A stretch of 64,000 nt of DNA, taken from positions 27,290 through 91,289 of the forward strand of contig CAWCSI010000007.1 of assembly GCA_963798135.1 (NCBI GenBank), read 5' to 3'. This stretch comes from Candidatus Bathyarchaeota archaeon. Its GTDB lineage: Archaea; Thermoproteota; Bathyarchaeia; Bathyarchaeales; Bathycorpusculaceae. Both the position numbers and the translations under genes were made by a program. Below are positions 46,275-64,000 of the stretch, piece after piece (positions within the stretch are counted from its first letter, which is position 1; each line of letters opens with the position of its first letter). The notes under the pieces are model-generated. The model was not told the DNA's origin, ran no database searches, and saw only the letters and a program-made list of their open reading frames with translations.

Positions 46275-47660
46275 ATGTTGATTCAGGTAATGCAAGGCAC
46301 TCGCGAAGGAAACTATAAGCTAAAAGCGTTAAAGATTACAGCAGTTGCAATTTTCAGCGTTGTAATAGTTGAAGTTTCAATCGGCTTAATAGTTAATAGT
46401 TTAGCAATCCTCAGTGACGGCCTACATTGTCTACTAGATGCAATATCAACTATAATGTTGTTCTTTGCTGTTCGAGCGTCAATGGAGCCGCCGGATGAAG
46501 AACACACTTACGGTCACGAAAAATTCGAGGACATAGGTGGACTCATTGGTGGAATCACGTTGATTGCAGTGGCATTCCTGATTTTCTATGAAGCAGCAAT
46601 CAGAATAATGGAAGGGAGCAGAATCTCGACAGGTGTGGCATACGCGGGTTTTATCGCCATCGGTTACGCCATATTCATCGCGGCGCTGAGGGTCACGGTT
46701 TTTAAAAGAAGCCAGCACATAGAAAGCCCATCAATGCGCGTGGGATTGTATGATGCAATTTCAGATCTAAGTTCAACTATGCTTGCATTGTTAGGTTTCG
46801 GGTTAGCTACATTGGGCTTCTACTATGGAGACTCCATAGCATCAATAATACTTGGTGTTTTGCTTAGCTATCTAAGCATTAAACTAGTGCGGTTTAGTAT
46901 CATGGAACTCAGTGATACTGCATCAAAGGAAGTAGTTGGAAAAACACGCAAAACGATATCGCGTAACGTGTGTGTAGAAAAAATAGTTAGCTTGAAAGTT
47001 CGCAAAGTAAGTTCAAAAATCTTTGTTGATGCATCAATACAAGTTTCCAGTCACATGCCTCTTGAGGAAGCACATTCTTTAGCTTCTAAAATTGAATTTG
47101 ACCTCAAGGAAGCTTTTGGAAACGTTGACGCCACCATTCATATTGAACCCTCTGAAAAAGATGCAAAAATGGACGAGTTAGTTCAGAGGCTTGCAATGGT
47201 GGATGGAGTGAAGGAAGTTCATGAAATCTCAACGATTTACACTGGCGGAAAATTCTACATAACTTTACATGCTTACGTTAACCCTGAAATATCAGTTGAA
47301 GAAGCACACAAAATAGCCGAAACTATCGAACAAAGAATATATGCTGAAATTAAACCACTTGAAAACATAACTGTTCATGTTGAGCCTTCAAGCATAGCAG
47401 GCCCAGTAACTGACATCAATGAAGTTCAACTCAAAAATGTTGTTAACGAAGTTACCAAAGGCATTGGAGTTCACATACGAATCAAGAGAGTAGTAACATA
47501 TGTGGCCGAAGGGAAACGCTATATCAACATTGACTGCTGTTTCACCAAGCAAATTCAAATAAAAAAGGCGCATGAAATCGCCTCACAAGTTGAAAAGGAT
47601 ACCAAAGAGCGTTTTGCAAACTCAGTTGTTACTGTTCATATTGAACCAGAGTGCACATAA
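46275..47660 (+). CDS. Cation diffusion facilitator (FieF-like) with three tandem C-terminal dimerisation domains
   Basis: SDGLHCLLD, PPDEEHTYGH.K.E; HIEP/HVEP/HIEP each preceded by EEAH/KKAH. Confidence 0.9.
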   Translation: MLIQVMQGTREGNYKLKALKITAVAIFSVVIVEVSIGLIVNSLAILSDGLHCLLDAISTIMLFFAVRASMEPPDEEHTYGHEKFEDIGGLIGGITLIAVAFLIFYEAAIRIMEGSRISTGVAYAGFIAIGYAIFIAALRVTVFKRSQHIESPSMRVGLYDAISDLSSTMLALLGFGLATLGFYYGDSIASIILGVLLSYLSIKLVRFSIMELSDTASKEVVGKTRKTISRNVCVEKIVSLKVRKVSSKIFVDASIQVSSHMPLEEAHSLASKIEFDLKEAFGNVDATIHIEPSEKDAKMDELVQRLAMVDGVKEVHEISTIYTGGKFYITLHAYVNPEISVEEAHKIAETIEQRIYAEIKPLENITVHVEPSSIAGPVTDINEVQLKNVVNEVTKGIGVHIRIKRVVTYVAEGKRYINIDCCFTKQIQIKKAHEIASQVEKDTKERFANSVVTVHIEPECT

Positions 47661-48886: not shown

Positions 48887-51124
48887 ATGATGCTCTCTAG
48901 ATCAGCAGTAGTTAAACTAAAAGCAATTTTCATAATTGACCTCATTATTGTAGGCGCTGCAGTCGGCGTCTTTTTTTACCTTCAAAACGATGGCTTATTA
49001 GCACAGGGAACTAAACCAGCAAAGTTTACCCTTAAAGATCTAACTATCAGCTCACCAAATGCAACTCTTGGTGATTCAGTATTGGTTTCAGTTAATGTAA
49101 CCAACGTAGGTGATTTTGAAGGAAATGACACAGTCAATTTTCTAATAAACGGTTCAGTTAGGGATATTGAAAATCTAACCCTTGCAGCTGGCGACTCTGT
49201 AATAGCTCAATTTAATGATGTCGAATTAAAAGAAGGCAACTATACTGTTAAAGTTGGTGATCTGACTGGTGCTTTTACAATTAATCCAGCGCTTCCAGAG
49301 TCAAGCAAAATTATCTTATCCAACCTTGTAAATGACCCGATTGAGATTTGGGCAAATGATACGGTTACCGTAACTGCATCTGCACAAAACCCCAGCGCAC
49401 AAGATGACAAACTTAGAGTAACATTAACAGTTGACGGCACAGTTGTGCAAACTTCAGAAATCTCAGTTGCTGCTGGCGAAACTCAAACTGTGGCGCTCAA
49501 CGCGACGGCAACAACTGAGGGACAACATAAAGTAAAATTGAACACATTGGTTGGATCTTTCTCAGTTGTCAAGACGGGTTTTCACACTATAGAAATTGCC
49601 CGTTCAGGCGGTGGCTCCAAATCTTTACCTTTTACTTTTGACAATCAACCAGTAGGCACAACATACACTGCGCTAGTGTCAGTAGGAGTGCACAGTATAT
49701 CTGTGCCATCGCCATATGATGTTGGAACAGGTGTAGTTGCGTTTTCAAGTTGGAGCGACGGTGTAAATAATCCAACAAGAACAGTCGACGTGGAAAAATG
49801 GACACTTCTGGTTGTAACTTACAACGTAATCAGCGGATATGCATCATGCCCCTCATTGTACACTTGGAATGGAACAGGATACTCTTATGTTACAGATGTG
49901 GCTAACTCGGGATGGCTTGGCTATTTAGGAACAATAAGTAACAACGGAGCGATAACAAATACAGGAGGAAACCCGTGGGATTACGTAAAACTTGACGAGA
50001 GCACAATGTCTACAAAAACAATCAATGGCAACAATTACTTTGATATGATTCTCTCCCAAGAATGGGACGAACTTTTCTATTTAGATTCAGCTACTTTGGT
50101 TGCTGTTGATCACCCTGCAGGAACAGACGCGTACACATCCATGACCAATTATCTAAACAAAGGTTCAACAGGACAAATCTACACTGTAAACTCAAATAGC
50201 CTCTTATCACCCATTGCAGCAACCAATGAAAAAGGACAAAATGTTCTTCCAGACATATTGAAACAGGACGGAGTTTTCACCCCAGGCACCTATGGCACTC
50301 AAAATCCAGCATGGAATAATATAACATTAAACCAGTTAACAGTTGACTTGGGAAATCTATCTGCCGCTCAGCAAATAAAGCTTGTATTTACTGGAATTGT
50401 AGATTGGGGACCATACCAATCCTATTACAATTGGATCGACATGTTCAAAACTGCTGCTGCCCAAGGACTCGTACCAAATGGCACAGCAATTACACCTGAT
50501 TCATATATGGAGTATAAAGCTGCAAATGGCACTTGGGTACGACTTTCACAAGACAAACAAATACCTATACCTGCAGATTCCAATCCTAGAACTTTCGTGG
50601 TGGACTTAACCGGAGTGTTTCCAAAAGGCATAACTGATTATCAAATTCGAATAAGCAACTTTTGGAATGTAACCTATGACTATATTGGAATAGATACTAG
50701 TACTCAACAAAACATAACTGTACAAAAAATCAATCCTATCGCAACTCTTAGCCAATTCTGCAGTACTAATTCTACTTCTTCTGGAAACTTTACAAAATAT
50801 GGCGATGTGTCAGCGTTGGTTCAAAATGCCGATGATATGTTTGTAATAGGCAGACAAGGTGACCAAGTTGAGCTTGAATTTCCAACCGCTAACCTTACAG
50901 CACCTGCGCCCGGTATGGTGAGAGATTATTTCCTATTCGTCTCTGCCTGGTTTAAGGATCCTCCAGGACAATGGGGATATGGGTTTAATTTCACAACTGA
51001 CCCAATGCCGTTTATGGCTATGAGCGGATATCCATATCCATCCACTGAAAGCTACCCATACGACGCAGCACACTTGGCATATCTCCAACAATACAACACC
51101 CGAGTAATTCCACCAGCAAACTGA
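48887..51124 (+). CDS. Large membrane-anchored extracellular protein: two CARDB-like Ig domains plus a conserved C-terminal domain
   Basis: N-terminal TM; VNVTNVGDFEG; SCPSLYTWNG, YLD..LVAVDHP, TKYGDV, DDMFVI, RDYFL, MSGYPYP, YNTR. Confidence 0.8.
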   Translation: MMLSRSAVVKLKAIFIIDLIIVGAAVGVFFYLQNDGLLAQGTKPAKFTLKDLTISSPNATLGDSVLVSVNVTNVGDFEGNDTVNFLINGSVRDIENLTLAAGDSVIAQFNDVELKEGNYTVKVGDLTGAFTINPALPESSKIILSNLVNDPIEIWANDTVTVTASAQNPSAQDDKLRVTLTVDGTVVQTSEISVAAGETQTVALNATATTEGQHKVKLNTLVGSFSVVKTGFHTIEIARSGGGSKSLPFTFDNQPVGTTYTALVSVGVHSISVPSPYDVGTGVVAFSSWSDGVNNPTRTVDVEKWTLLVVTYNVISGYASCPSLYTWNGTGYSYVTDVANSGWLGYLGTISNNGAITNTGGNPWDYVKLDESTMSTKTINGNNYFDMILSQEWDELFYLDSATLVAVDHPAGTDAYTSMTNYLNKGSTGQIYTVNSNSLLSPIAATNEKGQNVLPDILKQDGVFTPGTYGTQNPAWNNITLNQLTVDLGNLSAAQQIKLVFTGIVDWGPYQSYYNWIDMFKTAAAQGLVPNGTAITPDSYMEYKAANGTWVRLSQDKQIPIPADSNPRTFVVDLTGVFPKGITDYQIRISNFWNVTYDYIGIDTSTQQNITVQKINPIATLSQFCSTNSTSSGNFTKYGDVSALVQNADDMFVIGRQGDQVELEFPTANLTAPAPGMVRDYFLFVSAWFKDPPGQWGYGFNFTTDPMPFMAMSGYPYPSTESYPYDAAHLAYLQQYNTRVIPPAN

Positions 51125-51237
51125 GGATTAACGTCAAACCTGCCCTAAAAAACTAAAACACCCTAAATCCAAAATTCGCTAAACCTTTAAATCACTATTT
51201 TCTTATTTGCATAACTAAAACTTACAAGAGTACTATC

Positions 51238-51936
51238 ATGTCTTTAATTCCCCAGATCTCTAATCCGTATCTTGGAGCGCTTATTGGCGGTTTAACATAT
51301 GGATTCGCGGTTTGCACTGCAACGTGCCTCCCATACGTAGCAAGCTACATTGCAGGTACCGGCGCAGATTTTCGTAAGGGAGTAGGCATAACCTTAACTT
51401 TCAATTCTGGGCGAATAGCAGCTTACGCTTTAATCGGAGGCTTAGTAGGCATATTTAGCGGTTTATTTAGATTATTTGTTTCCGCCTCAACGATTTCTCC
51501 ATTTCAAATGTACTCATCAATTGCCTTTGGAATAGTGACGATACTAATAGGCGGCTATATTCTACTCACATTAAAAACGAAGAAAACCTGCAGTGCCCAA
51601 CAAACCCAAAACTTTGGTTTGAATGGAAAAACAGGTAGATTTGGATTCGATTATGGCGCTTTTTCCCTCGGCTTAAGTAGAGGATTAATCATTTGTCCAC
51701 CTTTAATAGCGCTCTTGATTTATTCGTTACCTTTTGCAAGCCCACTTGGAAGCGTAGGTTTAGCCGTATTGTTCGGGCTAGGAACAACTATTTCTCCAAT
51801 ACTTTTACTTGGAGGACTTACCGGGTGGCTTCTCAATAAAGCACCTTTGTTTCGAAAATGGCTTTCAATTGCTGGTGCGGGAATACTAATACTGCTTGGA
51901 GCTGTCACATTAATAACTGCAATAATTCAACTTTAA
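51238..51936 (+). CDS. DsbD_2/UreH-like (TauE/SafE-like) Cys-bearing membrane protein
   Basis: CTATCLPY, FNSGRI.AY, GLIICPP, LFGLGT; 6-7 TMs. Confidence 0.8.
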   Translation: MSLIPQISNPYLGALIGGLTYGFAVCTATCLPYVASYIAGTGADFRKGVGITLTFNSGRIAAYALIGGLVGIFSGLFRLFVSASTISPFQMYSSIAFGIVTILIGGYILLTLKTKKTCSAQQTQNFGLNGKTGRFGFDYGAFSLGLSRGLIICPPLIALLIYSLPFASPLGSVGLAVLFGLGTTISPILLLGGLTGWLLNKAPLFRKWLSIAGAGILILLGAVTLITAIIQL

Positions 51937-51960
51937 AAATAATTAAAAACGTGAAAAACA

Positions 51961-52944
51961 ATGAACTGGGACATAATAGGCAATATGCTATTAATCATAG
52001 TATTAGCAGGACTCGCAGTAGGCGGAGTCCTCGCTGTTTTAATTTGGAAGAAAAACTTGGCGACAAAAGTAACCTACATAAGATTAGTTATTCAAAGTAT
52101 TGCTTTTGCAGCGCTCTTCTACTTTTTCACCTTCACTATCCCACTTCTTTATGTGTTTATAGCTATTTTCGCGGTCACCATTGTTTTAGGTCGATTCTAT
52201 TGTGGATGGTTGTGCCCATTGGGCTTGGTTATGGACCTGACCGTTTTTGCTCGAAAAGCGTTGAAAATAAGTTATCACCTTATTCCTGATAGTTTAAACA
52301 AGATTTTGCATAAATCAAGATACGTGATATTTTTGTTCTTTTTATTTGTGCCAATTGCTTTATGGTTAATTCAGCCTCCTCCAAGCACAAATGTGGCTAT
52401 TTTGGAAGCTCAGCTTTTAGCTGGACCATTTCGTCCTTACAGTGTTTTAATTGACCCCTTGATACCGTTTGTGGTACCCTGGACAAATGCTGCTGTACCT
52501 GTTTTCCAAATTAATTTGACATTTCCTTACGTTCAAGAATTTTTCAGTTATTTAGGAAAAAATATTAATTTAGTATTCGCTATCGCTTTTGTTGGTATAA
52601 CGCTAGTTGGATCATTTTTCTTTAGACGGTTTTGGTGCCGATTCTGCCCTACAGGCGTTTCATTAAGTGTTATTAACAGGTTCAACGGATTTAAGTGGGT
52701 GCCTTTGCTCCACCTTGAAAAAGATGAAGAAAAATGCACCAAGTGTGGCGTTTGCAAGAGAGTCTGTCAATCGCAAGTAACAGAGGTGTACGAGCAGAAA
52801 GGTGGAACAATCGAAACCTCCATGTGTTTGTTATGCTTGCGTTGTGCGGAAATGTGTCCGTATGAAGATACGCTAAAATTGAAGTTTGGTAATAAGACTT
52901 TATTTAAATCAAGAAACTGGCTGGAGCCATCTACAAGCGAGTGA
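51961..52944 (+). CDS. NapH/MauN-like membrane 4Fe-4S protein
   Basis: GRFYCGWLCPLG, RFWCRFCPTG, CTKCGVCKRVC, CLLCLRCAEMCP. Confidence 0.9.
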   Translation: MNWDIIGNMLLIIVLAGLAVGGVLAVLIWKKNLATKVTYIRLVIQSIAFAALFYFFTFTIPLLYVFIAIFAVTIVLGRFYCGWLCPLGLVMDLTVFARKALKISYHLIPDSLNKILHKSRYVIFLFFLFVPIALWLIQPPPSTNVAILEAQLLAGPFRPYSVLIDPLIPFVVPWTNAAVPVFQINLTFPYVQEFFSYLGKNINLVFAIAFVGITLVGSFFFRRFWCRFCPTGVSLSVINRFNGFKWVPLLHLEKDEEKCTKCGVCKRVCQSQVTEVYEQKGGTIETSMCLLCLRCAEMCPYEDTLKLKFGNKTLFKSRNWLEPSTSE

Positions 52945-54284
52945 ATAAAATAATGAATACCGAAAAAACTGAAAAGAAATACATGCCTGAAATTCCCGCA
53001 AAAGAAATGGAAGAACTCAGAAACAGCATAAAAGCTGCCTCCCAAAAAATAATTGCTGAGAACATTGAGCGCATGAAGAAGGCTGATCCTAAAAGACCCC
53101 AAGCTATGAACTATTTTGACGAGATGGCCGACTTATTTGGTCAACGCCAAAAAGAGATTTCTTCCGAGAAACAGAAAGGCAAGAAAGTTATAGGTTACAC
53201 ATGCTTATTTGCTCCAATCGAATTGATTTCAGCAGCGGACGCCATCCCTGTACGAGTAAATTCAGGTTGGTATGACACTTCCAAAATTGGGGACAGAGTT
53301 GTACCCGTTGAAGTTTGCCCAGTTATCCGTTCAACCATAGGCGCAAAAATGATTGAACTTTCACCATTCCTTGAGCAAAGCGACGCACTTATAAGTGTTT
53401 TAACGTGCGATGGAATGACAAAAATGGGTGAGATTTTAAGCGATTACAAAACTATTTGGGAAATGAACATTCCAAGAGTTAAAGATGCAGAGCACTCGCG
53501 ACGCTTTTGGAATGATGAATTATGGCATATGAAAGGACAGCTCGAAAAGTTTACTGGCAACAAAATTACGCGAAAAAACCTCAAAGAAGCTATCGAGCAA
53601 AGTCAGAGAGCTACCCGAGCTTTTCGTCGCTTACAGGATTTACGCAAAGGTTCACCTGTTATTATGGGTAGAGATGCTATGCTTGTGAACCAATCGTACT
53701 TGTGGGATGATAAGAAGCGTTGGACCGAAAAAACTGAAGCATTATGTGATGAGCTTGATAAGAAAGTTCAGAGGAAAGAATGGGTTTGCTCACCTGAAAC
53801 TCCACGTGTACTGGTAACAGGTACTCCAATGTTTTGGCCAGATAACTGGAAGTTGCCAACTCTTGTTGAAGAATCAAATCCTCAGGGCATTATTGTTGCC
53901 GATGAACTTTGTTCAGGTGAAAGAATTCTAAATGACCCCGTAGGTGTGGATGAATGGAACATGGATGATATGATTAACGCTATTGGCGACAGGTATTTGA
54001 TGGCTTCCACGTGCCCATGCTTCACTTCAAAAGATGGCAATGAAGACAGGATTAACTGGCTTTTAAACAAAGTTAAGGAATCCAATATTCAAGGCGTCAT
54101 TTATTATGTGGTGCGCGGCTGTATGCTTTACGCCATGGAATATACCCGAATAAAAAAGGCTCTTGACAAAGTAAACATACCAGTTTACTACCTTGACACC
54201 GATTATACCCGAGAAGACGTCGGGCAAATGAAAACGCGGGTTGAAGCATTCCTTGAAATGTTAACCGCAAGAGTTGAAATCTAA
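52941..54284 (+). CDS. 2-hydroxyacyl-CoA dehydratase superfamily protein, double-cubane-cluster protein (DCCP)-like
   Basis: RP.AM.YFD N-terminus; GYTC, EVCP.IRS, LTCDG, DELCSG.R, TCPCF, RGC..Y; TDY..D.GQ..TRVEAF.E. Confidence 0.8.
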   Translation: MNKIMNTEKTEKKYMPEIPAKEMEELRNSIKAASQKIIAENIERMKKADPKRPQAMNYFDEMADLFGQRQKEISSEKQKGKKVIGYTCLFAPIELISAADAIPVRVNSGWYDTSKIGDRVVPVEVCPVIRSTIGAKMIELSPFLEQSDALISVLTCDGMTKMGEILSDYKTIWEMNIPRVKDAEHSRRFWNDELWHMKGQLEKFTGNKITRKNLKEAIEQSQRATRAFRRLQDLRKGSPVIMGRDAMLVNQSYLWDDKKRWTEKTEALCDELDKKVQRKEWVCSPETPRVLVTGTPMFWPDNWKLPTLVEESNPQGIIVADELCSGERILNDPVGVDEWNMDDMINAIGDRYLMASTCPCFTSKDGNEDRINWLLNKVKESNIQGVIYYVVRGCMLYAMEYTRIKKALDKVNIPVYYLDTDYTREDVGQMKTRVEAFLEMLTARVEI

Positions 54285-54296
54285 ACAAGTGATTTC

Positions 54297-55082
54297 ATGA
54301 TTACTGTCGGAATGGATTTAGGTACACAATCCGTCAAAACGGTCGTGTTAAAAGATGACGCTGTTTTGTCAAGGAAACAAGCGTTCTCAGGTTTTGATCC
54401 AACAAAAGCCGCCGAGCAAACCGTGGACGAAGCTCTAAATCAAGCGGGTCTGGCAAAATCTGACGTTAGTTTATTTGTCGCAACCGGTTCAGGCATGAAC
54501 TTGGCGCCTTACGCGAACAGCACAATAAGTATGATGGGTGCTGACGCCAAAGCTGCTATTTACCTTTTTCCAAAAGCTAGAACTATTATCGATGTTGGTG
54601 CTGAAGAAGCTAGAGCAGTTAAGTGCGATGAGAAAGGGGTTATGGCTGATTTTGTTGTTAACGAGCGGTGTGCCGCCGGTGCGGGTGCATTTATTGAGGC
54701 AATGGCGCGTGCTTTAGAAGTAAAATTGGAGGATATGGGTCCGTTGTCGCTTAAGGCGGAGCGGGCTAGCCCCATTAATGCTTCATGCGTAATCTTCGGT
54801 GAATCAGACGTAGTTTCACTGATTCATCGCCAAGAATCTAAACCTGAAATAGCAAGAGCAGTTTTCGACGCAATGGCTGATCGTATTTCGTCGATGGTTC
54901 ATAGATTGGGAGTAAACCCGGATGTGGTTCTGGTTGGCGGAGTAGCTAAGGATGTCGGTTTTGTTGCAGCATTAAATCGAAAATTAGGAGTCAAAGTTTT
55001 GATACCTGAATATCCTGACTATGTTGGCGCACTTGGAGCGGCTTTAATAGCTGCTCACAGATCTAAGGAGACGCAAAAGTGA
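54297..55082 (+). CDS. bzdP: ASKHA ATPase/activase, Bzd-type benzoyl-CoA reductase subunit P-like
   Basis: GMDLGTQ, DVGAEEARA, NERCAAGAG.F.E, NASCVIFGES. Confidence 0.72.
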   Translation: MITVGMDLGTQSVKTVVLKDDAVLSRKQAFSGFDPTKAAEQTVDEALNQAGLAKSDVSLFVATGSGMNLAPYANSTISMMGADAKAAIYLFPKARTIIDVGAEEARAVKCDEKGVMADFVVNERCAAGAGAFIEAMARALEVKLEDMGPLSLKAERASPINASCVIFGESDVVSLIHRQESKPEIARAVFDAMADRISSMVHRLGVNPDVVLVGGVAKDVGFVAALNRKLGVKVLIPEYPDYVGALGAALIAAHRSKETQK

Positions 55083-55990
55083 GCGAACCAATTACCGTTA
55101 AAGAAGACGTAGAATTCTGGCGTTGGAAAGAATATCAGCGTATAATGCCAGGGATAAAATGGACAAACAAAGACACTATAACGGCTGGTGTTGATGTAGG
55201 GTCGGTTGGTTCAAAGGCTGCTATAATGGTTAACGGAGAAGCATATTCATGGGGTATTACTCGAACTGGTTCTAATAGTCCTGAAAGTGCAACTAAGGCT
55301 TTAGATTGGGCTCTTAAAGGTACGGGTCTTAAGGCAAGTGACATCAAATACATAGTCGGTACAGGTTATGGGAGGGTCAATGTTCCTATGGCAAACAAAG
55401 CTATAACAGAAATTGCATGCCATGCAAAAGGAGCCAATTATATTTGGGGACCAAGCGTTCGAACAGTTCTTGACGTTGGAGGACAAGACATCAAAGCCAT
55501 TCGAATAGATGAAACAGGTAGAGTAGTTTCGTTTTTGATGAATGACAAATGTGCAGCTGGAACTGGCAGAGGAATGGAAGTCTTCGCTGATCTCCTGAAG
55601 ATTCCGATTGAGAAGATCGGGGAAATGTCACTTCAAGTAGATGAGGAACCGCCCCCAGTAAGTTGTACATGTGTTGCTTTTGCAAAAACCGAAGCCATGG
55701 GGCTTCTACGTAAAAGCTGGTCTAAAGAGAAGGTTTTGGCAGCGTACACGAGAGCAATGGCTGTTCGTATGGCTAATCTGATCAATAGAGTTGGTCTAGA
55801 AAAAGAATTAGTTATAACGGGTGGGCAATCAAAGAATATTGGAATTGTTAGCAGGATAGAGGTTGTTTTGGGGACAAAATGTTTGCCTATGCCCAATTGG
55901 AGAGAAAACGGCTTAGATCCTATGGTTGCAGGCGCGTTAGGCGCAGCGATTTTCGGCAAGGCACTTTATGAGAAAGGACAAAAAACTTAG
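55079..55990 (+). CDS. bzdQ: ASKHA ATPase/activase, Bzd-type benzoyl-CoA reductase subunit Q-like
   Basis: EFWRW.E N-extension, ITAGVDVGSV, TGYGRVNVP, TEIACHA, DVGGQD, MNDKCAAGTGRGMEV, CVAFAK. Confidence 0.78.
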   Translation: MSEPITVKEDVEFWRWKEYQRIMPGIKWTNKDTITAGVDVGSVGSKAAIMVNGEAYSWGITRTGSNSPESATKALDWALKGTGLKASDIKYIVGTGYGRVNVPMANKAITEIACHAKGANYIWGPSVRTVLDVGGQDIKAIRIDETGRVVSFLMNDKCAAGTGRGMEVFADLLKIPIEKIGEMSLQVDEEPPPVSCTCVAFAKTEAMGLLRKSWSKEKVLAAYTRAMAVRMANLINRVGLEKELVITGGQSKNIGIVSRIEVVLGTKCLPMPNWRENGLDPMVAGALGAAIFGKALYEKGQKT

Positions 55991-56001
55991 AGGACAAGTT
56001 A

Positions 56002-56289
56002 TTGATTACGAATTATGGCTATAGCGACGGATCAGGTGAATACTATATAACAATTGATACTGACAAATGCATTGGCTGTGGCAAGTGCGTGAAAAAGTGT
56101 CCACAATCAGCACTTCAGCTCGAAACCATGTTTATAGACCTTGAGGATAAGATTGTTGCTTCAGCTACAGAAGAGCATAGAAAGAAAATAAAGTATACAT
56201 GTGCACCTTGTAGGCCCGAAACTAATAGAACTCCATGTATGCTATCGTGTGATTCAAAAGCAATTAACTGTACATGGAAGATTCTGTAA
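56002..56289 (+). CDS. 2x[4Fe-4S] ferredoxin, BzdM-like
   Basis: NYGYSDGSGEYYITIDTDKCIGCGKCV..CP ... KIKYTCAPC....PC...C. Confidence 0.8.
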   Translation: MITNYGYSDGSGEYYITIDTDKCIGCGKCVKKCPQSALQLETMFIDLEDKIVASATEEHRKKIKYTCAPCRPETNRTPCMLSCDSKAINCTWKIL

Positions 56290-56402
56290 GATGTTACTTG
56301 GGTATTTTTTGCACATCAGCAGAGTCTAATTTTATTTAGCTATTTAGCGCGGCCTATTACATGTCTTGAATCGTCATATATTAGAAAACGTTATCTGAGA
56401 TA

Positions 56403-62907: not shown

Positions 62908-64000
62908 ATGACAGAAGCTAGTTTACCCTTCAACGAAAGGTATTATCCAAGTATTGCCAAGATTTCTAACGGCGAAAAAAGAAAAGAAGAATCCGAAAAA
63001 GCCCTAAAGAACCCGCAAGAATACTGGTCTGAAAAAGCAAAAGCCATTGATTGGTATAAGCCATTCAGTAAAGCCCTTGACGATTCAAACCCGCCATTTT
63101 ACAAGTGGTTCCCCGATGGAGAACTAAACATCTGCTACAACGCCATAGACAGACACATAAAAGGCCCACGAAAAAACAAGCTTGCCTACATATGGGAAGG
63201 CGAAATGGGCGAAGTAAAAACTTACACTTACTATCAATTATACCGAGAAGTAAACAAACTTGCAAAAGCCCTAAAAGACTTCGGCGTCAAAAAAGGCGAC
63301 CGTGTAGCAGTTTTCCTTCCAGTTATTCCAGAGTTGCCAATCACATTGCTTGCAACTGCAAGAATAGGTGGAATCCACACTGTTGTCTTTTCAGGTTTTA
63401 GCGCAGAAGCATTAGCTGACAGAGTAAATGACTGTGGAGCAAAAATATTAGTTACCGCAGATGGTTCTTTCCGAAGAGGAAAACCAGTTGGCATCAAAGA
63501 CAATGCAGATCGTGCAACACCACTTATGCCAAACATCGAAAAAGTAATTGTTGTTAAACGTACAGGTCAAGCTGTTCAGATGAAAGAGGGCAGAGACGTT
63601 TGGTATCATGACGCTCTTGCAAACGCCGGTGCAAATGCCTATGTAGAACCAGAAAGCATGAAATCCACCGACCCATTGTTCATTCTGTACACTTCAGGAA
63701 CCACTGGCAAACCAAAAGGTGTTCAGCACGGCATAGGCGGATATCTTGTTTGGGCTTATTGGACTATGAAATGGGCTTTTAACCCAACAGAGGAGGACAT
63801 TTACTGGTGCGTTGCAGACATAGGCTGGATTACTGGACACACATACAACGTTTATGCACCATTAAGCCACGGAATGACCGCTTTTCTATTTGAAGGCACA
63901 CCAGACTACCCAGGACAAGACCGCTGGTGGCAAATGATCGAAACCCACGGCGTAACCATCCTTTACGGAACACCAACCGCTGTCCGCATGTTCATGAAAT
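62908..64000 (+). CDS. acs: Acetyl-CoA synthetase (AMP-forming), 3'-partial at the window edge
   Basis: ATG 62908; KWFPDGELN.CYNAIDRH, ARIGG.H.VVFSGFS, LYTSGTTGKPKG, DIGWITGH. Confidence 0.92.
   Translation, partial: MTEASLPFNERYYPSIAKISNGEKRKEESEKALKNPQEYWSEKAKAIDWYKPFSKALDDSNPPFYKWFPDGELNICYNAIDRHIKGPRKNKLAYIWEGEMGEVKTYTYYQLYREVNKLAKALKDFGVKKGDRVAVFLPVIPELPITLLATARIGGIHTVVFSGFSAEALADRVNDCGAKILVTADGSFRRGKPVGIKDNADRATPLMPNIEKVIVVKRTGQAVQMKEGRDVWYHDALANAGANAYVEPESMKSTDPLFILYTSGTTGKPKGVQHGIGGYLVWAYWTMKWAFNPTEEDIYWCVADIGWITGHTYNVYAPLSHGMTAFLFEGTPDYPGQDRWWQMIETHGVTILYGTPTAVRMFMK

Follow-up and report, generated by a model that had tools for sequence, protein, structure and literature searches.

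The window analysed here is a 64,000-nt stretch of a Candidatus Bathyarchaeota contig, and between positions 51238 and 56289 it carries six tightly packed, co-directional genes on the + strand. In order, they encode a DsbD_2/CcdA-like polytopic membrane protein (232 aa; 51238..51936), a NapH-like membrane polyferredoxin (327 aa; 51961..52944), an HGD-D-family protein resembling the double-cubane protein DCCP (52941..54284), two ASKHA ATPases of BzdP type (ATPase A, 261 aa; 54297..55082) and BzdQ type (ATPase B, 303 aa; 55079..55990), and a BzdM-like 2[4Fe-4S] ferredoxin (95 aa; 56002..56289). An earlier note had described this set of genes together with several characteristic motifs (EFWRW, NYGY.DGSGEYYI and a six-Cys pattern), and we found all six ORFs, their Pfam families, their spacing and the motifs to be as it described them. 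The genes are separated by 24, −4, 12, −4 and 11 bp, with both 4-bp overlaps hinging on GTG starts, and the median gaps at orthologous loci are 13, −4, 9, −4 and 3 bp. Two elements read from the sequence flank the unit on both sides: a TATA-box-like TTTAAAT (51186..51192, + strand), a candidate archaeal operon promoter 46 nt 5′ of the first ATG, and a T6 run (56305..56310, + strand), a candidate archaeal terminator 16 nt past the ferredoxin stop codon. The next ORF begins 180 bp downstream, and its position differs between relatives. The TTTAAAT element sits in a 113-bp gap 3′ of a gene for a CARDB surface protein with a membrane anchor (745 aa; Pfam CARDB, one N-terminal TM segment; 48887..51124, + strand). 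This gene lies directly upstream in about 50–56 of 80 loci, at a median of 124 bp from the DsbD_2 gene (36 loci with both adjacent), and may be linked to the operon. Surface proteins adjoin loci of the sister clade as well; those are beta-propellers, and no sequence likeness was found between them and the CARDB protein.

The core formed by the DCCP-like protein, ATPases A and B and the ferredoxin is present at all 80 loci, from 80 Bathyarchaeia species, and the NapH-like and DsbD_2 genes accompany it at most of them. A synteny check in other Bathyarchaeia thus returned a conserved gene order, and this conservation in 80 species rules out chance. Because the NapH-like and DsbD_2 genes have each been lost in some lineages, neither is strictly required. 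The hosts of the operon are soil and peat Bathyarchaeia.

The product of the single catalytic gene (Pfam HGD-D, E 1.4e-97) had been proposed to be of DCCP type. Its best PDB matches are 7YYL/6ENO (E 1e-81), as compared with only 4e-23 for BzdN, and its AF2 model (pLDDT 91.9) has the fold of 6ENO (TM 0.87/0.93, vs 0.73 to BzdN). Local identity to the DCCP of the Carboxydothermus hydrogenoformans DCCP/DCCP-R pair (CHY_0487/0488; PDB 6ENO, 7YYL and 7YZM) is about 45%. C88, C126, C156, C324, C358 and C394 align with all six [8Fe-9S] ligands of DCCP and are invariant in 80/80 orthologues, and the long N-terminal helix of the long (“class I”) DCCPs is present. The NCBIfam double_cubane model (NF040772) gives 343.2 bits, 7 bits short of its cut-off of 350; other NCBIfam models give 95 (BzdN), 102 (HadC), 23 (BzdO) and 29 bits (HadB). 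The published DCCP signature is a seven-Cys motif, and in catalytic DCCPs the seventh Cys adjoins the cluster opening (PMC7317905). That residue, Cys94 in Carboxydothermus, is Asn107 here, and the position is occupied by N in 75, S in 5 and C in none of the 80 orthologues. The assignment stands for the six ligands but falls short of the curated cut-off and the seventh motif Cys, so the cluster chemistry may differ from that of the Carboxydothermus enzyme. E. coli YjiM, one of the short (“class II”) DCCPs, is adjacent to its only activator, the archerase ATPase YjiL, and also has the six ligand Cys. Unlike the operon's protein, it lacks the N-terminal helices, retains the seventh Cys and is without membrane partners; YjiL is only 29–35% identical to A and B. 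The single catalytic protein is thus DCCP-type and scores with neither BzdN/O nor HadB/C, and BzdN falls in a different subclade of the tree.

The rest of the core resembles a different system, the Bzd-type class I benzoyl-CoA reductase of Aromatoleum/Azoarcus (BzdNOPQ plus BzdM; PDB 8S02, with the related MbdONPQ as 9GAI). The P-Q-M gene order is shared, and both ATPases match the BcrAD_BadFG family (E 4e-48 for A and 9e-49 for B). ATPase A is 44–46% identical to Aromatoleum BzdP and 33–37% identical to other activases, and the two form one clade (support 100/99), a join marked by the tree program as a meeting of long branches. Its NCBIfam profile (TIGR00241 206, BcrD 164, BzdQ 139) is like that of true BzdP (194, 139 and 125, respectively). 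Its best PDB match is HadI (186 bits), the solved MbdP scoring lower (113 bits), and 79/79 orthologues retain its candidate cluster Cys, C125 and C164. ATPase B, whose gene is better conserved than any other in the operon (mean identity 87%), is 54% identical to Aromatoleum BzdQ (clade support 100/100), scores 347 bits against TIGR03192 bzdQ (cut-off 380) over model positions 5–292, and carries EFWRW in a 34-aa N-terminal extension that aligns with the BzdQ extension. The Aromatoleum reference operon was itself checked with curated HMMs (BzdN 855–884, BzdO 955–971 and BzdQ 660–685 bits), and its BzdQ shares 98% identity with the A. evansii KB740 protein. The ATPases are thus Bzd-like as had been claimed, each being sister to its Aromatoleum counterpart, and are not generic HgdC-type, bona fide HgdC, HadI, DCCP-R and BcrA/D being compared by PDB scores only; the solved DCCP-R chain gives no more than 123 bits with A and 130 bits with B. 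The ferredoxin (Pfam Fer4) likewise bears out its description as BzdM-like: it matches over its full length (45% identity, E 1e-22) a 94-aa ORF at the bzdM position directly downstream of bzdQ in Aromatoleum (L180:3577-3861:-), shares with it the motif MI.NYGY.DGSGEYYI.IDTDKC, and has eight Cys that are invariant in 58 orthologues. We presume that A and B are the two halves of a heterodimeric [4Fe-4S] “archerase” and that the ferredoxin donates electrons to it. Carboxydothermus, in contrast, has one homodimeric DCCP-R, and we know of no solved precedent for a heterodimeric ATPase acting on a symmetric homodimer.

The two membrane proteins set the operon apart from the Carboxydothermus and Bzd systems. 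The DsbD_2-like protein (PF13386, E 4.6e-21, 76 bits vs cut-off 24.9) has about 5–6 hydrophobic segments, with C26-x3-C30 in TM1 and C153 in a CPP motif; these three Cys are kept in 56–57 of 57 orthologues. The NapH-like protein (two Fer4_5 and Fer4 families) has CX3CP (C81, C85) and CX2CP (C226, C229) motifs beside TM helices; its C-terminal 2x[4Fe-4S] domain lies at C259–C299, and all 12 of its Cys show no or almost no variation across 61 orthologues. The NapH, NosH and CcoG polyferredoxins share this layout of paired Cys-x(2-3)-Cys-Pro motifs by TM helices with a 2x[4Fe-4S] domain at the C-terminus, but the NCBIfam NapH/MauN score of 64.7 bits is so far below the cut-off of 213 that the likeness is one of architecture only and not orthology; the second motif, CX2CP, also sets it apart from those polyferredoxins. 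Unlike in those systems, its partner here is a cytoplasmic ATP-driven reductase, and the genes annotated around the operon include no Nap, Nos or cbb3 genes. The NapH-like gene overlaps the DCCP gene (median gap −4 bp, 67 loci), and its translational coupling is to this gene rather than to those of the ATPases. A NapH-like homologue with 29% identity (E 4e-36) lies directly 5′ of a DCCP gene just 42% identical to the operon's. Complex prediction for the DCCP dimer with NapH residues 222–327 gave a score of 0.53 (runs 0.40–0.59; best control 0.00), in a range (≤0.60) where, unless there is a good prior, predictions are wrong more often than right; contact agreement was at least 91% and partner pLDDT at least 67, and 58 of 80 solved complexes reached the score mark in calibration, as did 2 of 110 mismatches. 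The Fe-S domain may thus dock on the DCCP dimer, a weak prediction. The membrane coupling suggested in the earlier note is supported by the conserved adjacency and, weakly, by the complex prediction; the lineages in which the genes are missing count against it.

In our view, the product of the operon is probably a very-low-potential, ATP-driven reductase that is associated with the membrane and assembled from parts of two known systems. The ferredoxin would pass electrons to a [4Fe-4S] cluster bridging the BzdP/BzdQ-type heterodimer, and ATP hydrolysis would push each electron uphill to the [8Fe-9S] double-cubane cluster of the DCCP-like protein, presumably a homodimer. Carboxydothermus DCCP also has ASKHA [4Fe-4S] ATPase partners and presumably the same ATP-driven uphill transfer; what differs is that the operon here includes a dedicated BzdM-like ferredoxin and two membrane proteins. 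The electron would then be spent on a hard-to-reduce substrate, not benzoyl-CoA but more likely some small molecule or the redox centre of a partner. The NapH-like and DsbD_2-like proteins would connect the enzyme with the membrane, serving either as a conduit for electrons or thiols or as an anchor. Such a hybrid operon is undescribed in the searchable literature, as had been supposed, although its parts come from known systems.

The double-cubane cluster might instead be an electron store or relay and not the active site, as in BzdN, whose [8Fe-9S] cluster is used to transfer or store electrons (PMC11971306); ATP-energised electrons would then leave through the NapH-like polyferredoxin, and through or with the DsbD_2-like protein, to reduce a target that lies in the membrane or outside it, for example a disulfide, a surface protein, or a metal or metalloid. 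The coupling of the NapH-like gene to the DCCP gene, their adjacency in distant relatives, the weakly predicted docking of the Fe-S domain (best control 0.00), and the surface proteins beside the module here and in sister loci are consistent with such a route, as is the loss of the seventh Cys in 80/80 orthologues, which BzdN also lacks. However, sister-clade proteins with a NapH-like neighbour still have that Cys, some orthologous loci are without the NapH-like or DsbD_2 gene, the complex score lies in an unreliable range, and the surface proteins of the different lineages are not homologous. We therefore regard this relay as unlikely.

Databases and papers favour an aromatic-ring reductase. 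JGI's name for the orthologues of ATPase B is “bzd-type benzoyl-CoA reductase Q subunit”, class I bcr genes have been attributed to Bathyarchaeota (PMC6472368, PMC10477458), and lignin-derived aromatics support growth of Bathyarchaeia (PMC12694404). With the orthology of the BzdP, BzdQ and BzdM counterparts, one might picture a minimal class I aryl-CoA reductase in which one subunit does the work of both BzdN and BzdO. Yet both the active site, with its aqua-[4Fe-4S] cluster, and the pocket for the CoA ester lie in the BzdO/BcrB-type subunit (PMC11971306), and the operon has neither such a subunit (note the BzdO and HadB scores above) nor a BzdN orthologue. In the archaeal genome (73% complete), the HGD-D genes number just two, each of DCCP type, and there are no activase-type ATPases besides A and B; a search of it found no BzdN/BzdO, and no benzoate-CoA ligase, Oah or Dch (dienoyl-CoA hydratase) above cut-off. 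Five congeners (96–100% complete) have 1–2 HGD-D genes each, DCCP-type only, with no second HGD-D subunit or dienoyl-CoA hydratase. A nearby AMP-ligase is an acetyl-CoA synthetase. Moreover, the cultivated Bathyarchaeon described as having “BcrACD without BcrB” was inhibited by benzoate (PMC10477458). A true aryl-CoA reductase is thus highly improbable, and the ring-reductase reading is very probably wrong; the JGI name and the “BcrACD” description are instances of the misannotation that had been foreseen. It is scarcely credible that the operon encodes a radical enzyme of the 2-hydroxyacyl-CoA dehydratase type together with an activator, performing a non-redox dehydration with only catalytic electron injection, although the NCBI label on the ATPases is “acyl-CoA dehydratase activase”, the Pfam family is HGD-D and HadI is the top PDB match of ATPase A. 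Dehydratases of this kind require two different subunits with a three-Cys cluster in each, whereas the operon has one subunit with six invariant ligand Cys that scores far below the equivalog cut-offs for HadB (750) and HadC (700), and its own ferredoxin and two ATPases suggest a stoichiometric electron supply.

Relatives at 42–43% identity also have a NapH-like gene directly upstream, and in one of them the DCCP is fused to an ATPase and followed by a second ATPase. A 45%-identical relative, the sister four-gene cluster L092, has the same DCCP-ATPase-ATPase-ferredoxin core and ends in a ferredoxin 36% identical to that of the operon.

The operon (51238-56289, +) consists of six plus-strand ORFs, to which Pfam assigns, from 5' to 3', a DsbD_2 domain (51238-51936), two Fer4_5 motifs plus a dicluster domain in a NapH-like protein (51961-52944), HGD-D (52941-54284), BcrAD_BadFG in each of two ATPases, here called A (54297-55082; 261 aa) and B (55079-55990; 303 aa), and a small Fer4 ferredoxin (56002-56289). 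Successive gaps are 24, -4, 12, -4, and 11 bp, and the tight co-directional packing first described for these genes is borne out by ORF coordinates, gaps, and domain assignments alike. A TTTAAAT box lies 46 nt 5' of the initial ATG, and past the final stop codon comes a T6 run; a scan for sigma-70 promoters and intrinsic terminators, inapplicable to archaea, yielded fewer sites than shuffled sequences and was discarded. The genome carrying the operon is a member of Bathyarchaeia (2.8 Mb, 73% complete) whose nearest relatives are MAGs from peat, bog, and soil.

The single catalytic gene encodes a protein of the double-cubane cluster protein (DCCP) type. Against all PDB sequences, its best match was Carboxydothermus DCCP (7YYL/6ENO, E 1e-81), with BzdN (4e-23), HadC (8e-18), and MbdN (6e-15) trailing by a wide margin. 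It scored 343.2 bits on NF040772, the NCBIfam double-cubane equivalog, 7 under the cut-off of 350, while the DCCP of a sister cluster (L092) scored 375 bits and a second DCCP gene on contig 6 of the same genome 494 bits. Other NCBIfam models gave 95 bits for BzdN (cut-off 454), 60 for BcrC, and 23 for BzdO (cut-off 449), and a 2-hydroxyacyl-CoA dehydratase (HadBC/HgdAB) was rejected on scores of 102 bits for HadC against a cut-off of 700 and 29 for HadB against 750, together with the presence of only one subunit gene. The AlphaFold (AF2) model of the protein (pLDDT 91.9) superposed on 6ENO with TM 0.87/0.93 as compared to 0.73 on BzdN, its top PDB structure matches were 6ENO, 7YZM, and 7YYL (TMq 0.86-0.88, TMt 0.91-0.93), and the protein is accordingly predicted to adopt the DCCP fold. 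Long N-terminal helices like those of the Carboxydothermus-type DCCP are retained, whereas the short E. coli YjiM lacks them. Relatives are few: at E 1e-30 or better, only 239 clusters (50% identity) were found among 1.8 billion representatives, and the closest full-length ones are 42-47% identical.

The DCCP family is defined by a seven-Cys motif: six residues are ligands of the [8Fe-9S] cluster, and one more, Cys94 of DCCP_Ch, which is found in both class I and class II, is positioned beside it (PMC7317905). C88, C126, C156, C324, C358, and C394 align to the ligand positions and show no variation across all 80 orthologues; the last spacing is three residues longer than in the published motif (PMC7317905). 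The DCCP-type Cys pattern claimed in an earlier note therefore holds for the six ligands, and the seventh Cys is missing: its position is Asn107 in this protein and N (75/80) or S (5/80) among orthologues, never Cys, as against Cys in 73 of 107 family representatives. BzdN likewise lacks the seventh Cys.

Where the Carboxydothermus system has one cognate homodimeric reductase, DCCP-R, the gene studied here is followed by two different ATPases, and these resemble the P and Q subunits of the Bzd-type class I benzoyl-CoA reductase. Our Bzd references came from Aromatoleum toluclasticum genomes, in which the N (855-884 bits), O (955-971), and Q (660-685) products of two bzd operons all exceed the equivalog cut-offs; the BzdQ used shares 98% identity with its A. 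evansii KB740 counterpart. Identity of A to BzdP is 44-46%, versus 33-37% to every other activase compared, and B is 54% identical to BzdQ versus 35-41% to the others, except for an L092 sister-cluster ATPase at 48%. A and B share ∼32% identity and fall into different lineages, P and Q. An IQ-TREE phylogeny of 28 ATPases, with HgdC, HadI, DCCP-R, and BcrA/D compared through PDB scores only, placed A and its orthologues as sister to BzdP (100/99, with a long-branch join flagged by the program in the P clade) and B and its orthologues as sister to BzdQ (100/100); in the ATPase pairs of L092 and of a four-subunit Rhizobium system, one member branched more deeply on the P side and the other on the Q side. 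B scores 347 bits on TIGR03192 (bzdQ), short of the cut-off of 380, and its 34-residue N-terminal extension aligns with that of BzdQ, EFWRW included. A is classed as BzdP-type by tree and identity, no curated BzdP model being among its matches, and it scores lower to solved MbdP than to HadI. From end to end, the ferredoxin matches the 94-aa ORF directly after bzdQ at 45% identity (E 1e-22), in the same operon position, and both carry the N-terminal signature NYGY.DGSGEYYI.IDTDKC. The Bzd-like character proposed for both ATPases and the ferredoxin is supported by the sister groupings, the extension, the signature, and the post-bzdQ match.

In the Aromatoleum genomes examined, bzdNOPQ is present twice per genome (L179 and L180; contigs 2 and 13 of A. 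toluclasticum), and a BzdM-like ferredoxin resembling the archaeal one follows only one of them. When Aromatoleum BzdQ was used as query in a homologue scan, all matches came from Betaproteobacteria, at identities of at least 77%. Matches in Azoarcus KH32C and on a Rhizobium plasmid were considered as Bzd references and rejected, as they belong to other HGD-D systems; they were kept as outgroups. The Rhizobium leguminosarum system (L087:2442-7870, plasmid NZ_CP030763.1) has four subunits, two of them HGD-D proteins and two ATPases, one P-like and one Q-like, that branch basally in their respective lineages; it adjoins rhodanese genes and a sulfate permease.

Judged by its sequences, the operon is a mosaic and very probably not a benzoyl-CoA reductase. 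In a tree (LG+G4) of DCCP-family representatives with BzdN and BzdO, BzdN fell in a different subclade (99) from the operon protein, which occupies a small clade of its own (96), so the catalytic and ATPase trees are incongruent. Nor was a BzdN-BzdO pair found: the operon has a single HGD-D gene, and every HGD-D gene in the genome and in five congeners is of DCCP type. At 73% completeness, the genome has two HGD-D genes in all and no such ATPases besides the operon's own; in the congeners (96-100% complete), HGD-D genes number one or two each, of the same two kinds, and four of the five have only the operon's ATPase pair, the fifth also carrying a fused double-ATPase gene elsewhere. The search for bzdN/O and benzoate-CoA ligase recommended earlier found the BzdN and BzdO models matching the operon protein far below their cut-offs, and benzoate-CoA ligase, Oah, and hydratase models gave nothing above cut-off in the 73% complete genome (TIGR02262 at best 264 bits against 375, TIGR03200 22 bits, TIGR03189 no match). 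No dienoyl-CoA hydratase was found in the five near-complete congeners. The sub-threshold ligase match is an acetate--CoA ligase (acetyl-CoA synthetase; 943 bits) lying ∼7 kb downstream of the operon at the window's end (63124-64000, +) and continuing in L185:389-2359. The predicted misannotation does occur, as JGI calls B orthologues "bzd-type benzoyl-CoA reductase Q subunit". Class I reductase genes have been cited for Bathyarchaeia (PMC6472368, PMC12694404), not necessarily the genes of this operon, and cultivated Bathyarchaeum tardum was described as having a "BcrACD cluster without BcrB", with benzoate inhibiting its growth (PMC10477458). Benzoyl-CoA reductase names on such genes are cited for anaerobic aromatic-ring reduction by Bathyarchaeia, a capacity that the sequence evidence does not support for this gene set.

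The module is well conserved. A DCCP-A-B-ferredoxin core was present in all 80 species-level loci returned, confirming synteny in other Bathyarchaeia, and median intergenic distances across orthologous loci are 13, -4, 9, -4, and 3 bp. The NapH-like and DsbD_2 genes lie 5' of the core in most of these loci, each being absent from some, and orthologues keep the Fe-S ligand Cys of the ferredoxin and the ATPases without exception and those of the NapH-like protein without exception or nearly so. A BzdQ-like gene was found in 99 of 401 sampled Bathyarchaeia genomes, mostly within the family of this genome (69 of 103) and a neighbouring one (17 of 18). The same four-gene core occurs at L092; in another near relative, a NapH-like gene precedes a DCCP::ATPase fusion, itself followed by a second ATPase, and a further one has a weakly DsbD_2-like membrane protein and a NapH-like protein (29% identical, E 4e-36) ahead of its DCCP. 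A relative just outside the clade has the canonical single ATPase.

The earlier note also proposed coupling to membrane electron or thiol transfer, and what stands of this is the conserved adjacency, together with a complex prediction of low score. The NapH-like protein has domain architecture alone in common with NapH/MauN (64.7 bits on TIGR02163; cut-off 213), and the DsbD_2-like protein (76.1 bits on PF13386, cut-off 24.9; C26, C30, and C153 conserved) belongs by sequence to that thiol-disulfide membrane family. A DCCP dimer modelled with the C-terminal Fe-S domain of the NapH-like protein scored 0.53 (runs 0.40-0.59), as compared to 0.00 for the best control, with contact agreement of at least 91% and partner pLDDT of at least 67. 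In calibration, 58 of the 80 solved complexes reached the mark, as did 2 of the 110 pairs that were mismatched, and a pass at 0.60 or less is wrong more often than not unless a good prior backs it. Here, a prior is provided by the conserved 4-bp gene overlap, and the model hints that the DCCP dimer docks on the Fe-S domain; the docking at the membrane itself we infer.

With the parts and cluster ligands identified, the most likely working of the system, by homology with the solved DCCP:DCCP-R and MbdONPQ, is a three-step path. The ferredoxin would reduce a [4Fe-4S] cluster held between A and B, which would pair as a heterodimer; ATP hydrolysis would push the electron into the [8Fe-9S] cluster of what is presumably a DCCP homodimer; and the electron would then pass to a substrate. 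The main rival employs the same machinery with the double-cubane cluster as a relay into the NapH-like protein, and two features are reasons to take it seriously: the missing seventh Cys and the coupling of the NapH and DCCP genes. In its full form, ATP-raised electrons would go via two membrane proteins, the polyferredoxin and the Cys-lined DsbD_2-like one, to an acceptor within the membrane or on its far side, and the [8Fe-9S] cluster would serve as a relay as in BzdN rather than as the active site; we consider this improbable as against the path ending at a substrate. Were it true, the operon would perform ATP-driven export of super-reducing power and would represent a present-day case of the DCCP-plus-PQM state, the proposed origin of class I benzoyl-CoA reductases.

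DCCPs, BzdPQM, and NapH-like proteins are each already known, and our literature search found no description of their combination, of a heterodimeric activase on a single-gene DCCP, or of the conserved membrane partners, in keeping with the proposal of an undescribed hybrid. Two branches of the family are joined here, a complete Bzd electron-activating module (P, Q, and M) standing beside a DCCP-type partner, and this pairing bears on the proposed derivation of BzdNO from a DCCP-like ancestor (PMC11971306). It also suggests that a heterodimeric archerase can pair with a single-gene, presumably homodimeric, catalytic partner. Because the physiological role of DCCPs has been an open question since 2018, this subfamily, conserved in an abundant archaeal class with a dedicated ferredoxin and, in most loci, a NapH-like membrane protein, gives a concrete system for a substrate search.

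The canonical DCCP paralogue on contig 6 (164313-165356, -; locus L005:8293-9594, -) has all seven Cys and is 37% identical to the operon protein. It adjoins selD (TIGR00476, 228 bits), a DsrE-family gene, and a divergent LysR regulator, its listed neighbours lying at L005:7358-8209 (-) and L005:9903-10268 (-), and it may take part in selenium or sulfur chemistry. The paralogue has no ATPase of its own, and since the three near-complete congeners that carry it have no archerase ATPases apart from the P/Q pair of the operon, it may borrow these.

Cell-surface proteins beside the module are a recurring theme. A membrane-anchored CARDB protein of 745 aa with a large C-terminal region lacking an assigned domain is encoded at 48887-51124 (+), and its gene is immediately 5' of the operon in about 50-56 of 80 orthologous loci, typically ∼124 bp from the DsbD_2 gene; it is set off by its own TATA-containing spacer, and its membership of the operon is only possible. 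In the sister clade (L090:1001-15386; 44-kb contig of P0132), NapH-like and DCCP genes lie among large beta-propeller surface proteins with PQQ_2, WD40-like, FG-GAP, and Kelch domains. The CARDB protein is not homologous to these and does not resemble the propeller or FG-GAP proteins in sequence, so a shared surface partner is unsupported. Two genes 5' of the operon, and kept in many relatives, is a CDF cation-efflux transporter (46275-47660, +) with three ZT_dimer matches.
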